The position numbers and the translations under genes were made by a program. The notes beneath the pieces were generated by a model. The model was not told the DNA's origin. It saw only the letters and a program-made list of their open reading frames with translations, and did no database searches. DNA of 64,000 nucleotides from a phage, in sequence record PZ445524.1; one strand, 5' to 3'. This document shows, piece after piece, positions 19,075 to 37,144 of the stretch (position 1 is its first letter; each line of letters starts with the position of its first letter).

Positions 19075-19389
19075 CTAAAAGAAACTTCTTTCACAATTTT
19101 TTCCACTGAACCACGCGCTCACTGCTTTCTTAGTCTCAGGAGCAGTGTTATCCATAAACCATTCAAAGGCAGCCTTTTTATGATTCTGGAGGGCTTCTCG
19201 GGCTTTAATCTGCTCACGGTCTATTAACACTAACATATGAGCCTTTCTTGTCACCAGGGGCTTCTTATGATTTTTTGAATACTCCCAATCATTTGTCCAT
19301 CGCATCGTTGTTGCGAATTGAAGTACAGCTTCTTTAATCTTAGTTTCGTAAATTTCACGAGCCTTTGAGTATAACATCATTACCTCCAT
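19075..19389 (-). CDS. hypothetical protein
   Basis: 104 aa ORF. Confidence 0.45.
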   Translation of the reverse strand: MEVMMLYSKAREIYETKIKEAVLQFATTMRWTNDWEYSKNHKKPLVTRKAHMLVLIDREQIKAREALQNHKKAAFEWFMDNTAPETKKAVSAWFSGKNCERSFF

Positions 19390-19478: not shown

Positions 19479-20459
19479 TTATTTCAGAAGAGTAACCTCA
19501 GCGATTTCTTCCCAACCGTTTTTGTCGGTCATAATAAAGTCAGCAAGATAAAGAGCAGTACGCAGTGAAACATTGCGTAAACGGTTAACATTGACTTTCA
19601 TCCATGATAATGCTTTATAAGTTTCTTCATCAGAAAGACCGCGCTTTTGCATCATGTCAGTTGAAAGAATAACATCTTCAACCCTGACCATAATTTCTTC
19701 ATTAGTGTGAACACCCAAATCCAAATAAACTGAGCGGGACACTAATGCTTGTAAATGTGGAGCAAGTTTAGTACCACGGTCTAATTCGCGGTCAATGTCA
19801 ACGTTTGTGATAAAAACAATCGTTCCTTTAAATTCAAACTCACGCTCAATGCCTTTTTCTTCTAAATAAGAAGATGCAGTGCTCCAGCAGACTTTACGGG
19901 TCTCTCCAGTGTCCAGAGCAGCTTTCAGAAGATTAAGAATGTCCATATCAGAGAAAACATCCACATCATCAATCAAAAGGACAGAATTCTCTTCACGATT
20001 ATTCCAGAGCTGTTCATAAAGACCGATACCAGAGATTTTACCGTTAATGCTTTTATATTCAATGTATCCAATATCATTTGCTTTATTTAAAGCTTTATCT
20101 AAAGAATACGTTTTACCAATACCTGCTGCTCCCGAGATAATTAATGAACGAATATTTCCGTTAATAATACCATTCGTCATCATTCCCATAACATTAAATC
20201 TTTTATTAATGCGGGTTTTCATATCTTCATATGATTCTTTAACTTCTTCAACTTTTACACCATCATATGAAATGTCTGATTTGTAAACCCAAACACCACG
20301 ACGTTTACCGTCAATTTCAACAAAAACTTTACCATCTCCTTGTGCATCTACTGGTGCATTATCTGGGAACCATTCGCCTAAGAGCTCAAAAGTTCCAGAG
20401 ATTTCTTTACCGAAGTAGATACCCTTATTGATAGTTACAGTTTTCATTTTATTCTCCAA
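19479..20459 (-). CDS. AAA+/P-loop ATPase
   Basis: 326 aa; Walker A GAAGIGKT; Walker B VLLIDDVD; sensor-like FITN. Confidence 0.65.
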   Translation of the reverse strand: MENKMKTVTINKGIYFGKEISGTFELLGEWFPDNAPVDAQGDGKVFVEIDGKRRGVWVYKSDISYDGVKVEEVKESYEDMKTRINKRFNVMGMMTNGIINGNIRSLIISGAAGIGKTYSLDKALNKANDIGYIEYKSINGKISGIGLYEQLWNNREENSVLLIDDVDVFSDMDILNLLKAALDTGETRKVCWSTASSYLEEKGIEREFEFKGTIVFITNVDIDRELDRGTKLAPHLQALVSRSVYLDLGVHTNEEIMVRVEDVILSTDMMQKRGLSDEETYKALSWMKVNVNRLRNVSLRTALYLADFIMTDKNGWEEIAEVTLLK

Positions 20460-20480
20460 ATCCGTATCAGTTGATAGTTG

Positions 20481-20511
20481 TATAGTACCATAAAGCTTTA
20501 TGCTTGTAAAC
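20481..20511 (-). promoter_or_regulatory. T4-type early promoter with conserved leader
   Basis: same module as at 19043 and 34616. Confidence 0.55.
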
Positions 20512-20561
20512 AGTTTTGTGAAAAATTTTTGAAATAAAAAAGGGAGCCCGAAGGCTCCCTA

Positions 20562-21572
20562 TCATTTATAATAACTTCGGTGGTTTTCAAGATAGACCTT
20601 CTCAAGGAAGTCATCCCAGAAACCCATGTCTACTTTTTGCTGCATACCGTTCTTAGAAGCTTCAGTAGATGCTGCTTCTACTTGATCGACCACATCTTCC
20701 AAAAACTCTTGAACCGTTTTAAATGGATGTTTACCCAACTTCACGTCGAGAATAAATGGAGCGTCTTTGAGTGGATAGACTAAGTCGCCAGTTTTGTAAA
20801 TTTCCAATAGTTGAAGTCCACCACGACAAGCATGGCTCAGAGCTTTCCAGTCAATGCCTTCGTTGGCTTCGGCCTTACGAGCGCGTTCACCATATTCAGC
20901 ATCTAATTTGTTCAGTGACTGCTTAAGCTCAATAAGAGAAAGAGTTGTCTGATATTTACGACCCAACACAGTGTAGAACGTTTGTGGGCCTGTTTTCTCA
21001 TGATTATGAAATACCCATTCACAGAACTCGTTCTCTGGAAGACGATGCTTAATATCTTCAACTTTAGTGCGACGCTGCTTAATAGAACCATCTTCTTGGT
21101 AATCAACCCATTGCTCAGGGATTTGATTAACTACTTTCAATACATCGCGTAATGCAGCCAAACGAGAACCCTTGACACCGTATTTAGAAGCTTGCTTGCG
21201 AACATATCCTAAATATGATTTCATGTTAGTCGTATAAAAACGAGAACGGTTGTCTTGAATAAACTTCCACACATCAGGCAAATCAGATTTAACCACTAGC
21301 TCAGGTGGAGTGTGAAGCATATCTAATGCTACAGTTTCACCATCTGCTGCTAATTTAAAGAAATACTTAAGACTGTATAGTTCATGGTCAATATCATCTT
21401 TAGTGTTTTTAGATGATGTGTTGTTAGTGTTTTTACTCATATGCTCTTTGACGTTTCCGATAAGAATATCGCGAGCAGGAGGAACAAAAATTTCTTTAAA
21501 ATCTACATCAGATTCTGGGGTAGAAGTTCCATAAAGATGACTACCAAAATAAGACTTAACTACAGTTTTCAT
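20562..21572 (-). CDS. putative nucleotidyltransferase (Pol beta-like fold)
   Basis: N-terminal motif FGSHLYGTSTPESDVDF fits the GS-x(9-13)-DxD signature; start uncertain (ATGs at 21572, 21587, 21596). Confidence 0.5.
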   Translation of the reverse strand: MKTVVKSYFGSHLYGTSTPESDVDFKEIFVPPARDILIGNVKEHMSKNTNNTSSKNTKDDIDHELYSLKYFFKLAADGETVALDMLHTPPELVVKSDLPDVWKFIQDNRSRFYTTNMKSYLGYVRKQASKYGVKGSRLAALRDVLKVVNQIPEQWVDYQEDGSIKQRRTKVEDIKHRLPENEFCEWVFHNHEKTGPQTFYTVLGRKYQTTLSLIELKQSLNKLDAEYGERARKAEANEGIDWKALSHACRGGLQLLEIYKTGDLVYPLKDAPFILDVKLGKHPFKTVQEFLEDVVDQVEAASTEASKNGMQQKVDMGFWDDFLEKVYLENHRSYYK

Positions 21573-22335
21573 TATTAGACCTTTCATAATCTTCATTAAA
21601 TTGTACAATCAATCGATGATAATTAGATTTTGGATATCCTAATTTACTTATATAAGTTCCGAATGACCCACGTTTAGGTCTATTTAATTTAATCCATAAC
21701 TTATAAAGTAAGTCATAGTCTTGCCAATGTTTACCAGTTCTTTGTCTAATTTTAGATGAATTTGATTGTTTCTTTTTAGTTTCAAAATTATTCAAAGATT
21801 TTTTGACTGCAGCAGAGTGTTTTTCTTTAACTCCCGGTCGTTTAAAAGCAGCTTTCACCCCTTTAGATATTTTTTCTTTAACTTCCGGTTTGTTTTGTGC
21901 TTCTAACTGGGATTCTGAAATTTTAGCCCTTATTTCAGGAAGACTTAATGTTATCGAACGTTTTTCTCTGTATTCATTAGACTTCCACATTTCTTTCATT
22001 GTATTAGAATGTATTTTTGAAAATTTTTCTCTAACTAACTGATATCCTCTTGAAGTTAATTTGAGATTTCTTCCTAAAGAATCTTCTCCAAAATTATAAA
22101 ATGACCACCATGCATAAATTAATCCAGGCGAATTATAATGAATTTTAGCTAAAAGCCAATGGGCTATAAAATGCTCTCTAGCTGTTAATAAAACTAGATT
22201 ATCAGAATCATCATTACCACCAATACAAGATGGAATAATATGATGCTTTTCCGTATAAAAATTTAATTTAGATTTATCTAATTTTCTGAGTTTTCCTTTC
22301 TTAATTAAATTATTATATACTTTAGTATAATTCAT
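21556..22335 (-). CDS. HNH homing endonuclease (MobD-like)
   Basis: 259 aa; HHIIPSCIGGNDDSDNLVLLTAREHFIAH HNH core; basic C-terminal repeats; paralog of ORF 59238-60050. Confidence 0.7.
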   Translation of the reverse strand: MNYTKVYNNLIKKGKLRKLDKSKLNFYTEKHHIIPSCIGGNDDSDNLVLLTAREHFIAHWLLAKIHYNSPGLIYAWWSFYNFGEDSLGRNLKLTSRGYQLVREKFSKIHSNTMKEMWKSNEYREKRSITLSLPEIRAKISESQLEAQNKPEVKEKISKGVKAAFKRPGVKEKHSAAVKKSLNNFETKKKQSNSSKIRQRTGKHWQDYDLLYKLWIKLNRPKRGSFGTYISKLGYPKSNYHRLIVQFNEDYERSNNENCS

Positions 22336-22409: not shown

Positions 22410-22967
22410 TCACTTTGAAATCATAGTTGGAATAACAGAATCAAGATAAGTCTTTAGTGCAATAGCTTCGTCTTTGTTTAATGTAATGATATGTGATCGA
22501 AAATCGTCAATTTGACGAATAGATACTATATCTCCCTCTTCATAGCATTTTGACACATTTAAAATAGTTTCATCATTATGATTACAGGAGTTAGTAATAA
22601 TAGCATTACATTTTTTAAACCATTTTAAATTATGTTTTCTTTTAGTAGAATCATAAAAATATTTAATGTTAGTTATAAAATTATCCCAATTATTAATTGA
22701 TAAGCACATTGACTCGCTTTTAATATTAAATCCTGGGCATGAAGAATAAAAATGAATTTTATGCTCATCATTAATGCTTACAATTTTATCAGTGTAAGCA
22801 TATTCAATTTGGGTTAAACGAACAATTTCGCTAGGCGTAAAATATAACATGTCATCTTCTTGCGTCAAACGATACATGTTATTTACTTTTTCTATAGCCA
22901 ATTCACCAAAAAGCGGACTAACTTCTAATACTAATCGTTTCATATTGATTCTCTTCGACTCACTCAC
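22410..22967 (-). CDS. hypothetical protein
   Basis: 185 aa ORF. Confidence 0.5.
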   Translation of the reverse strand: MSESKRINMKRLVLEVSPLFGELAIEKVNNMYRLTQEDDMLYFTPSEIVRLTQIEYAYTDKIVSINDEHKIHFYSSCPGFNIKSESMCLSINNWDNFITNIKYFYDSTKRKHNLKWFKKCNAIITNSCNHNDETILNVSKCYEEGDIVSIRQIDDFRSHIITLNKDEAIALKTYLDSVIPTMISK

Positions 22968-35793: not shown

Positions 35794-35870
35794 TGGTCGA
35801 GGCAGAAGGATTCTAACCTTCAACCTACGGATTAGAAATCCGTTGCTCTATACAATTGAGCTATGCCCCG
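35794..35870 (-). tRNA. tRNA-Arg (anticodon UCU), CCA encoded
   Basis: Hand-folded cloverleaf: acceptor CGGGGCA/TGCCTCG, D-stem GCTC/GAGC, anticodon stem ACGGA/TCCGT with loop TTTCTAA, T-arm GAAGG/CCTTC. Confidence 0.75.
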
Positions 35871-35873
35871 TAA

Positions 35874-36539
35874 TTAAAATTTCATTTTTCGACCTTTAAA
35901 CCATCCTTCTGGAATTGGGTCAGTTTTCTTAATACGTTTAGAAACTTTTTCATCTAATGAATGAATCCACATCATACCAAATTGGGAATTCTTTTCGCCC
36001 TGTTGATGTTTATTTCTGGCGTGAGATTCTTTCATTTTATTAATAGTTTCAGGAGTATGATGCTTATTTAAAAATCTGCTATTATTTAAAAATTTTTCCC
36101 TGTATTCAGGAGTTGACCACAAGCGTTTAAATACATTTGAACCATGTTTACGATATTTTTCTTGAAGTAAAATATCATTTTTAAAACGTGACTTAAACGA
36201 TTTAGCTCCTTTTAAGCTAGCATCTTTCTTCTGGTTTAGCATCCCAGGAATATTTACATGATCCCATCCACCTTCACCACCAAGTTTTAAATTATACACA
36301 TCTGGTCTATTTAAAAACTCTTCTGTGACAATATTTTTCTCGGCTTCAAGCATAGATTCTTTATCATCAAAATACTCTAATATTTCTTTAGAAAAATTTT
36401 CTATACCATATTTATCTTGGGCTCTTTTTAATAATTTACCAGAACCCATATATCCATCATCTAAATTTTCGGTAGAATGCGCACCAATATAAATTTTATT
36501 ATTAATTTTATTTGTTATTTTATAAGTGTAATGGAACAT
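35874..36539 (-). CDS. segB: GIY-YIG homing endonuclease SegB
   Basis: 221 aa; GIY-YIG motifs KIYIGAHST and YMGSG; embedded in the tRNA cluster as in T4. Confidence 0.85.
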   Translation of the reverse strand: MFHYTYKITNKINNKIYIGAHSTENLDDGYMGSGKLLKRAQDKYGIENFSKEILEYFDDKESMLEAEKNIVTEEFLNRPDVYNLKLGGEGGWDHVNIPGMLNQKKDASLKGAKSFKSRFKNDILLQEKYRKHGSNVFKRLWSTPEYREKFLNNSRFLNKHHTPETINKMKESHARNKHQQGEKNSQFGMMWIHSLDEKVSKRIKKTDPIPEGWFKGRKMKF

Positions 36540-36580
36540 AAATATCTCCTATTTCTAAGAGTATTTATGTTCCCAAAATA

Positions 36581-36652
36581 TGGCCCTGGGTGGAATTGAA
36601 CCACCATCTGGCGATTATGAGTCGCTTGCTTGAACCTTCCAGCTACAGGGCC
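36581..36652 (-). tRNA. tRNA-Ile (anticodon CAU, presumably lysidine-modified), no encoded CCA
   Basis: Hand-folded: acceptor GGCCCTG/CAGGGCC, anticodon loop CTCATAA, T-arm GGTGG-TTCAATT-CCACC. Confidence 0.7.
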
Positions 36653-36653
36653 T

Positions 36654-36729
36654 TGGTGCTGATTGACGGAATCGAACCGCCGACCTTCTCATTACAAGTG
36701 AGTTGCTCTACCTACTGAGCTAAATCAGC
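36654..36729 (-). tRNA. tRNA-Thr (anticodon UGU), CCA encoded
   Basis: Hand-folded: acceptor GCTGATT/AATCAGC, D-arm GCTC/GAGC, anticodon loop CTTGTAA, T-loop TTCGATT. Confidence 0.8.
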
Positions 36730-36731
36730 AA

Positions 36732-36818
36732 CGGAGGCGATAGGATTTGAACCTATGAGTCGCCGGAGCGACTGCCGGTTTTCAAGACCGGTGCATTAAA
36801 CCACTCTGCCACGCCTCC
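36732..36818 (-). tRNA. tRNA-Ser (anticodon UGA), long variable arm, no encoded CCA
   Basis: Hand-folded: acceptor GGAGGCG/CGCCTCC, anticodon stem CCGGT/ACCGG with loop CTTGAAA, variable arm GTCGC-TCCG-GCGAC. Confidence 0.8.
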
Positions 36819-36820
36819 AG

Positions 36821-36894
36821 TCTCCGCGGCAGGATTTGAACCTGCGACATTCTGCTCCCAAAGCAGACGCTCTACCAAACTGAGCTACACGGAG
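36821..36894 (-). tRNA. tRNA-Pro (anticodon UGG), no encoded CCA
   Basis: Hand-folded: acceptor CTCCGTG/CGCGGAG, anticodon stem TCTGC/GCAGA with loop TTTGGGA, T-arm GCAGG-TTCAAAT-CCTGC. Confidence 0.8.
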
Positions 36895-36904
36895 TAAATT
36901 AAAT

Positions 36905-36978
<74 letters not shown>

Positions 36979-36983
36979 AAATT

Positions 36984-37070
36984 TGGTGCGAGAAGTGGGA
37001 CTCGAACCCACAAGGAAATCATTCCGCAGCATTTTAAGTGCTGTGCCTTTACCAATTTGACCATTCTCGC
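36984..37070 (-). tRNA. tRNA-Leu (anticodon UAA), long variable arm, CCA encoded
   Basis: Hand-folded: acceptor GCGAGAA/TTCTCGC, anticodon stem CAGCA/TGCTG with loop CTTAAAA, variable arm GGAA-TGAT-TTCC. Confidence 0.8.
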
Positions 37071-37071
37071 G

Positions 37072-37144
37072 CTGGGAATAAAGGACTCGAACCTTTGCAT
37101 CCTGGAATCAAAATCCAGTGCCTTACCAACTTGGCTAATTCCCA
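37072..37144 (-). tRNA. tRNA-Gln (anticodon UUG), no encoded CCA
   Basis: Hand-folded: acceptor TGGGAAT/ATTCCCA, anticodon stem CTGGA/TCCAG with loop TTTTGAT, T-loop TTCGAGT; 1 nt from tRNA-Leu. Confidence 0.75.

Follow-up and report, generated by a model that had tools for sequence, protein, structure and literature searches.

NrdC.11 of a T4-type phage is a predicted long-form RlaP nucleotidyltransferase, encoded beside but probably acting independently of the AAA+ ATPase NrdC.10

Introduction

Phage T4 is where RNA repair was discovered. T4 encodes pseT, rnlA and rnlB, and its repair of tRNAs cut by the anticodon nuclease PrrC, carried out by Pnkp (pseT) and Rnl1 (rnlA), is experimentally established and needs no nucleotide addition. 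The RlaP family (RNA-ligase-associated Pol-beta nucleotidyltransferase; PF10127 / COG3541; e.g. PfRlaP of Pseudomonas fluorescens) was named for its association with RNA ligase genes and has been predicted to restore lost nucleotides before ligation, in phages as well. In jumbo phages, the distribution of RlaP mirrors that of RNA ligase. We analysed a 64,000-nucleotide stretch of DNA from a T4-type phage (sequence record PZ445524.1; termed the window; G+C content about 35%), in which an initial annotation made from the sequence alone had noted two adjacent genes, one for a Pol-beta-like nucleotidyltransferase (20562-21572) and one for an ATPase (19479-20459). Both open reading frames (ORFs) were found at these coordinates on the minus strand. 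They are the T4 early genes nrdC.11 and nrdC.10, which have already been catalogued.

A December 2025 preprint described the activity of RlaPs. Two such enzymes from Pseudomonas attach one or two nucleoside monophosphates to the 3′-OH of RNA, and none to DNA or protein. The enzymes prefer Mn2+, accept any RNA with a 3′-OH, and show little nucleoside triphosphate (NTP) specificity; deoxyadenosine triphosphate (dATP) is also usable. They need an RNA 3′-OH primer, stop after 1-2 additions, and leave E. coli proteins unlabelled. On a mimic of a cleaved tRNA they favour the anticodon-side 3′ end over the acceptor-end fragment, and besides tRNA halves they label full-length species of tRNA and rRNA size. 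They also raise the aminoacylation of religated tRNA that had lost one nucleotide. T4 NrdC.11 is listed in the same preprint as an uncharacterised RlaP member of sequence cluster 5. An older comparative study had matched nrdC.11 to the COG3541 nucleotidyltransferases and, weakly, nrdC.10 to AAA. Both genes have thus been annotated and treated in the literature before, and the RlaP assignment of NrdC.11 is published.

Here we compare the two genes with these systems and with each other. The reading that we favour, and consider probable, is that NrdC.11 is a long-form RlaP for RNA 3′-end repair, that NrdC.10 is an independent AAA+ ATPase, and that their adjacency reflects gene order.

Results

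NrdC.11 belongs to the RlaP family

The 3.1-kb region around both genes showed 97.6-98.2% DNA identity to T4 and the phages closest to it. The T4 counterpart of this region contains nrdC.9, nrdC.10, nrdC.11 and mobD, arranged and oriented as in the window.

The N-terminus of NrdC.11 (MKTVVKSYFGSHLYGTSTPESDVDF) contains the nucleotidyltransferase signature, with G10-S11 followed by ten residues and then D22-x-D24. The signature had been reported as GS-x9-DxD; it is present, with a spacing of x10 instead of x9. The protein matched Pfam model PF10127 with 43.8 bits (gathering cut-off 23; E = 3e-11), the match being confined to positions 24-142 of the 249 in the model. Because this score is above the cut-off, the signature match is not a chance one. 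In PHROGs, NrdC.11 matched phrog_388 ("nucleotidyltransferase") with E = 6e-136. An exhaustive search of 1.8 billion representative proteins revealed relatives in 3396 clusters at E <= 0.001, including 828 at E <= 1e-30, and nearly all of the 150 relatives listed aligned over the full length (310-350 amino acids). Conservation was determined in an alignment of 138 relatives with 35-58% identity. Residues G10, S11, Y131, H247, R250 and P267 were invariant; D22, D24, D84, D60, D62, K130, D241 and K243 were conserved in at least 90% of the sequences; and 137 of the 138 relatives had an RlaP match in Pfam. On these sequence criteria, NrdC.11 is a confident member of the RlaP family, i.e. a Pol-beta-type nucleotidyltransferase. 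The features of its gene are as follows.

20562..21572, minus strand: nrdC.11 coding sequence, 336 amino acids, predicted long-form RlaP-family Pol-beta nucleotidyltransferase (99% identical to T4 NrdC.11; Pfam, PHROGs, AlphaFold2)
21501..21545, minus strand: nucleotidyltransferase signature G10-S11-x10-D22-x-D24 (read in the sequence; conserved in 138 relatives)
21321..21323, minus strand: codon of D84, predicted third catalytic carboxylate, within ALDMLH (at least 90% conserved; aligns with a Glu in short bacterial RlaPs)
20910..21170, minus strand: subfamily-specific insertion, about residues 135-221, one helix and a beta-rich subdomain, boundaries approximate (AlphaFold2 model and profile alignment)
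20823..20852, minus strand: C-terminal helical-domain motif D241-W-K243-x3-H247-x2-R250 (conservation; equivalent in short RlaPs)

An insertion distinguishes NrdC.11 from short RlaPs

The AlphaFold2 model of NrdC.11 had a predicted local distance difference test score (pLDDT) of 94.9 and a predicted template modelling score of 0.86. It consists of the nucleotidyltransferase core (residues 2-95), helices (99-149), a beta-rich stretch (154-208) and further helices (213-335). Direct sequence searches with single sequences and profiles gave no significant match of NrdC.11 or NrdC.10 to solved structures.

Short RlaPs were compared with NrdC.11 by a local search of the NrdC.11-family profile against several bacterial RlaPs. 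A 252-amino-acid RlaP from a Bacillus pumilus plasmid, which matches the Pfam model from end to end, aligned at NrdC.11 profile positions 3-128 and 222-314 and skipped the middle. Because the short RlaP aligns in two blocks that flank this region, NrdC.11 can be described as an RlaP with an insertion of ~90 residues. The insertion is partly beta-rich and lies between the two halves of the helical domain; NrdC.11 has 336 amino acids, versus 252-273 for the short RlaPs found here. The two forms otherwise share an N-terminal nucleotidyltransferase domain, with GS...DxD and a third carboxylate, followed by a helical domain with the common motif D-x-K-x3-H-x2-R (G-Y-D-T-K-x3-H-x2-R in the short forms). 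An hhalign comparison of the NrdC.11 family with a single short RlaP was weak (24% probability) and covered the N-terminal region only.

These comparisons bear on two statements of the initial annotation. Its nucleotidyltransferase call holds: profile search led to RlaP rather than to a non-catalytic family or a chance motif, the Asp residues are kept, and a Pol-beta-type fold is predicted with confidence. The ~300 residues after the signature, to which no function had been given, comprise the remainder of the nucleotidyltransferase core, the helical domain of RlaP and the insertion.

NrdC.11 shows little likeness to signalling or protein-modifying nucleotidyltransferases

NrdC.11 gave no match to models of cGAS/DncV-like or other immune-signal nucleotidyltransferases. 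PADLOC detected no defence-system match, and NCBIfam gave nothing useful.

Nucleotide-signal mimicry or interference had been proposed as one function of the enzyme. NrdC.11 might make free oligonucleotides or a nucleotide signal that mimics a host immune signal, for example a HalB-like oligo-dA that silences Hailong. RlaP can use dATP, and Hailong is triggered once phage exonucleases destroy the HalB product; a phage-made substitute would therefore be a logical counter. However, the sequence puts NrdC.11 firmly in RlaP, and RlaPs need an RNA 3′-OH primer, stop at 1-2 additions and do not extend DNA. HalB, the anti-phage nucleotidyltransferase of Hailong, aligned with NrdC.11 over only 131 residues at 16% identity, with no sequence-family link, and it makes DNA oligomers for host defence, whereas RlaPs extend RNA by 1-2 nucleotides. 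The searches against defence-system models, including PADLOC, gave no specific support. We consider such a role highly improbable.

The nucleotidylation of host proteins had also been suggested. NrdC.11 could nucleotidylate a protein or small molecule, in the manner of an MntA-type antitoxin or an aminoglycoside/lincosamide nucleotidyltransferase, and so neutralise a host toxin or metabolite. A weak match to an MntA model was found (E = 0.067), covering the GS motif only, and toxin-antitoxin and defence genes surround several of the cellular homologues. Matches of this kind are weaker than that to RlaP and concern the generic core only; the conserved C-terminal motif is common to NrdC.11 and RlaPs; and bacterial RlaPs did not label E. 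coli proteins in vitro. We found no specific support for this function and regard it as very unlikely.

Cellular and viral homologues of NrdC.11

The best plasmid homologue was encoded by Asticcacaulis pASDW145_1 (34% identity across 97% of the query; E = 4e-46). This full-length homologue includes the insertion and scored 313 bits against the family profile. Its gene belongs to a bacterial RNA-repair operon with the order Hen1, Pnkp, long RlaP, short RlaP. A more divergent homologue in Deferribacter, matching Pfam model positions 2-246, lies ~2.6 kb downstream of RtcB on the same strand. A neighbourhood of RNA-repair genes, as known for RlaPs, is clear at the Asticcacaulis locus and loose at the Deferribacter one, and was not seen at the other cellular loci described below.

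Further cellular loci were found with the Asticcacaulis protein as query. With the Asticcacaulis plasmid, seven were examined, two of which share one context. A long RlaP gene (326-332 amino acids) was followed by a short RlaP gene (266-273 amino acids where complete), with a slight overlap of the reading frames, in all seven. We did not find this tandem pair mentioned in the December 2025 preprint. No AAA+ gene adjoined the seven NrdC.11-type genes or the Deferribacter homologue.

One phage-like contig carried a long-form RlaP alone. Short RlaPs were found in 80 phage records, which belonged to jumbo phages, other large non-T4 phages and an archaeal virus; none was T4-type. In contrast to the cellular tandem, T4-type phages carry the long form without a short RlaP.

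Three distant viral contigs had a gene resembling rnlA or pseT within 10 kb of the nrdC.11 homologue (NrdC.11 at 46% identity). In one contig an rnlA-like gene is ~3.5 kb upstream, and in the other two the gene is ~9 kb upstream.

Proposed role of NrdC.11 in RNA 3′-end repair

From the family membership we infer the following sequence of events. NrdC.11 would use its three carboxylates (D22, D24 and D84) and two divalent metal ions, Mn2+ being preferred in the bacterial enzymes. It would extend the 3′-OH of a broken RNA by one or two nucleotides in a template-independent manner. Its likeliest substrate would be a tRNA 5′ half, left after a host nuclease has cut the anticodon loop and also removed a nucleotide. 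The phage Pnkp (pseT) and RNA ligases (rnlA, rnlB), encoded elsewhere, could then reseal the halves into a usable tRNA. This scheme shares with the Pnkp-Rnl1 pathway the phage and the proposed purpose of restoring nuclease-cut tRNAs; NrdC.11 would act upstream of ligation. In contrast to that pathway, which handles PrrC cuts with no nucleotide addition, NrdC.11 is predicted to matter only after nucleotide loss, as with RloC-type nucleases.

Another possible substrate is the opposite end of the tRNA. In place of anticodon-loop breaks, NrdC.11 might repair or extend other RNA ends, such as the acceptor (CCA) 3′ end of tRNAs, and thereby counter host enzymes that trim or block tRNA 3′ ends. RlaPs label full-length tRNA- and rRNA-sized species and accept any 3′-OH RNA and any NTP, and the phage has its own cluster of eight tRNAs (35794-37144). 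However, NrdC.11 had no match to CCA-adding enzyme / class II tRNA nucleotidyltransferase families, including the poly(A) polymerase head-domain family, the low NTP specificity of RlaPs does not fit accurate CCA synthesis, and the assayed RlaPs preferred the anticodon-side 3′ end to the acceptor-end fragment. Action at the acceptor end is in our estimate unlikely. The initial annotation had put forward RNA 3′-end repair of the CCA type; RlaP membership backs 3′-end repair and does not extend to the CCA type.

nrdC.11 and nrdC.10 are neighbours rather than a supported pair

The spacer between nrdC.11 and nrdC.10 is 114 bases long. A terminator scan revealed a GC-rich hairpin of 8 bp (8 pairs, 6 of them G-C) followed by a T-run, and a promoter scan revealed a promoter-like site with a TG extension at 20510-20482.

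20531..20560, minus strand: intrinsic terminator after nrdC.11, AGGGAGCCTTCGGGCTCCCT then T-run (terminator scan; annotated in U76612.1)
20482..20510, minus strand: early promoter of nrdC.10, TTTACA-17-TACTAT with TG extension (promoter scan; U76612.1)

The depositors of the T4 GenBank entry U76612.1 labelled the same two sites terminator and "early promoter 54.4". The separate early promoter that had been noted before the ATPase gene is therefore confirmed by both the scan and the T4 record, and a terminator together with this promoter separates nrdC.11 from nrdC.10.

We also determined how often the two genes occur together. Among 55 viral NrdC.10 loci, nrdC.11 was upstream on the same strand in 39 and absent within 10 kb in 16. 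Among 78 viral NrdC.11 loci, nrdC.10 was downstream in 38 and absent nearby in 40. The gap between the genes varied between 112 and 2290 bp, which means that additional ORFs often separate the two. Three relatives whose NrdC.11 is 82% identical have the order mobD.1, nrdC.11, nrdC.9, nrdC.8, nrdC.6, nrdC.5, without nrdC.10. Klebsiella phages had 286 NrdC.11 records versus 149 NrdC.10 records, and Vibrio phages 59 versus 121. The genes are ~21 kb apart in Atu_ph07, and nrdC.11 has no AAA+ neighbour in Aeh1 or in one KVP40-type phage. Of the 6 T4-like genomes compared in an earlier study, only 3 had nrdC.10.

The initial annotation had treated the nucleotidyltransferase as paired with the ATPase. 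As a functional module, the two could work together, for example with an AAA+ ring that unfolds or presents damaged RNA or ribonucleoprotein, or that regulates the nucleotidyltransferase. The order is kept in the 39 of 55 and 38 of 78 loci given above although the proteins are only 50-65% identical across genera, and it persists while ORFs between the genes come and go. Both genes are early; both are present, far apart, in KVP40-type phages and Atu_ph07; and both occur in Aeromonas phage 31. Against a module stand the strong terminator and separate promoter, the variable gap, and the close relatives that keep nrdC.11 and nrdC.9 to nrdC.5 without nrdC.10. By the genus counts, many phages have one gene only, and relatives of NrdC.10 occur in jumbo phages such as 121Q without NrdC.11 nearby. 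At the seven cellular loci a short RlaP gene, and never an AAA+ gene, follows the long-form gene, and NrdC.10 was found on only two bacterial or archaeal contigs, of which at least the one of 167 kb looks T4-phage-like. A functional module seems to us unlikely. The adjacency is conserved T4-type gene order, and the evidence does not support a two-gene module.

NrdC.10 is a phage-type AAA+ ATPase

The Walker A and Walker B motifs ascribed to the ATPase were both present in ORF 19479-20459, and an AAA+ fold was predicted. The TTG start at 20459 is an artefact that arose because ORFs were listed mechanically. NrdC.10 almost certainly starts at the ATG at 20447, which follows a GGAG by six bases, and the T4 reference has the same start.

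19479..20447, minus strand: nrdC.10 coding sequence, 322 amino acids from ATG, predicted AAA+ ATPase with N-terminal beta domain (GGAG at 20454-20457)
20109..20132, minus strand: Walker A GAAGIGKT (read in the sequence; G110, G113, G115 and K116 invariant)
19959..19979, minus strand: Walker B LLIDDVD, with Asp-Asp instead of the usual Asp-Glu (read in the sequence; D164 and D165 invariant)

All seven Pfam AAA-type matches of NrdC.10 were below the cut-off, the best being AAA_14 (23.5 bits versus 27), and PHROGs placed the protein in a family without assigned function. Identity ranged from 53 to 100% among 120 listed relatives. In 90 relatives, G110, G113, G115, K116, D164, D165, R242, R295 and R300 were invariant and N219 was nearly so. 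N219 may serve as sensor-1, R242 (in an SRS motif) as the conserved Arg/finger, and R295 and R300 as lid arginines. The AlphaFold2 model (pLDDT 90.3) has a five-strand N-terminal beta domain (residues 7-66), a long helix, the AAA+ core and a helical lid. As modelled, NrdC.10 has a real AAA+ fold, with an alpha-beta-alpha core and a helical lid.

The core, lid and Walker A of NrdC.10 resemble those of the AAA+ groups MoxR (NorQ, CbbQ), sigma-54 activator, MCM and DnaA/ORC/RFC. However, none of these groups stands out as a relative. NrdC.10 differs from them in the DD, instead of DE, of its Walker B and in its extra five-strand N-terminal beta domain, which is absent from its jumbo-phage relatives. 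Among predicted viral structures, its relatives were uncharacterised phage AAA+ proteins, some of ~255 amino acids without the N-terminal domain.

In bacterial and archaeal genomes, NrdC.10 was found on two contigs only, both from metagenome bins (167 kb, bacterial; 73 kb, Candidatus Nanoarchaeia). The 167-kb contig is very likely a T4-type phage genome that was binned by mistake. The family was found only in phage-type sequences, and no recurring partner gene was observed beside its distant relatives (Vibrio V05, 121Q, Atu_ph07). NrdC.10 would thus be a separately transcribed, phage-specific AAA+ ATPase, probably an oligomeric nucleotide-dependent switch or remodeller that acts independently of NrdC.11.

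The end of NrdC.10 differs between records. The T4 reference protein has the C-terminus ...EEIATGYSSEINS; in the window and in the family consensus it is ...EEIAEVTLLK, with T323 invariant. The difference suggests that the T4 reference record contains a frameshift or sequencing error close to the 3′ end of nrdC.10.

Public GenBank and UniRef records often label NrdC.10 or NrdC.11 "thioredoxin", and single entries read "HNH homing endonuclease" or "clamp loader". The thioredoxin label is unsupported, and NrdC.10 has no specific similarity to clamp-loader subunits. These labels look like carry-over from the neighbours nrdC and mobD, or from weak matches.

Other genes of the region

The HNH homing-endonuclease gene mobD (window 21556-22335) overlaps the start (ATG) of nrdC.11 by 17 bases. 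It is present in T4 and in the window, and none of the 55 IMG/VR relatives had it within 10 kb; the loci without mobD include ones whose NrdC.10 and NrdC.11 are 97-100% identical to those of the window. This distribution fits a recently mobile insertion. On the other side, nrdC.9 (window 19075-19389) matched Pfam DUF7203 (E = 2e-15). In Pfam, mobD.1 (window 22410-22967) matched two y05I-like "putative transcription factor" domains (E = 3e-43 and 9e-21).

The tRNA cluster at window 35794-37144, on the minus strand, is the standard T4 tRNA region and comprises Arg, Met-type (CAT), Thr, Ser, Pro, Gly, Leu and Gln tRNAs. Rfam revealed these eight tRNAs only, and no structured RNA in or near nrdC.10 or nrdC.11.

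Discussion

The assignment of NrdC.11 to RNA 3′-end repair, with NrdC.10 as an independent neighbour, has to be weighed against several observations. The assayed enzymes were short RlaPs of sequence cluster 1a, not T4 NrdC.11 of cluster 5. In T4, nrdC.11 does not adjoin a ligase gene: pseT, rnlA and rnlB are 50-80 kb away in T4, no RNA-repair gene adjoins nrdC.11 in the window, and rnlA or pseT was within 10 kb in only 3 of 78 viral NrdC.11 loci. Only one of the seven cellular long-form loci, the Hen1-Pnkp locus of the Asticcacaulis plasmid, can be recognised as an operon for RNA repair; the genes around the others are of toxin or defence type (HipA, AbiEii, GmrSD, PIN) or are housekeeping genes. 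Because the cellular long forms come with a short partner that T4-type phages lack, the solo phage enzyme may act differently from the cellular tandem enzymes. T4 tolerates deletion of the nrdC.11 region in the laboratory, and any role of NrdC.11 is therefore conditional. As regards the independence of the two genes, the same-strand order nrdC.11 then nrdC.10 is kept in phages of Escherichia, Klebsiella, Serratia, Yersinia and Acinetobacter, and because the order is conserved in several phage genera, a functional link retains a small probability. We nevertheless hold RNA 3′-end repair by NrdC.11, with NrdC.10 as a separate ATPase, to be the probable reading.

A more specific proposal can be made only tentatively. 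The long-form phage RlaP could work alone, with the insertion replacing the short partner, and together with Pnkp and Rnl1 it could refill the nucleotide excised by RloC. More speculative still is the addition that the phage-only NrdC.10 assists the nucleotide-refilling step of NrdC.11 in the T4 lineage.

For phage repair of tRNAs that miss a nucleotide after RloC-type cuts, NrdC.11 is the obvious candidate and has been named by others before. Because others had already pointed to it, the present value of these results is confirmation and not discovery. Two points should be useful for the design of experiments. NrdC.11 belongs to a long-form subfamily with an insertion, which occurs in tandem with a short RlaP in the cells examined and solo in T4-type phages, and the neighbouring ATPase is not to be presumed its partner. 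NrdC.10 itself is an AAA+ protein with strong conservation, which we found in phage-type sequences only. If the tentative proposal for the solo enzyme is true, NrdC.11 would give T4 a counter to RloC-type nuclease, which is thought to defeat phage tRNA repair.

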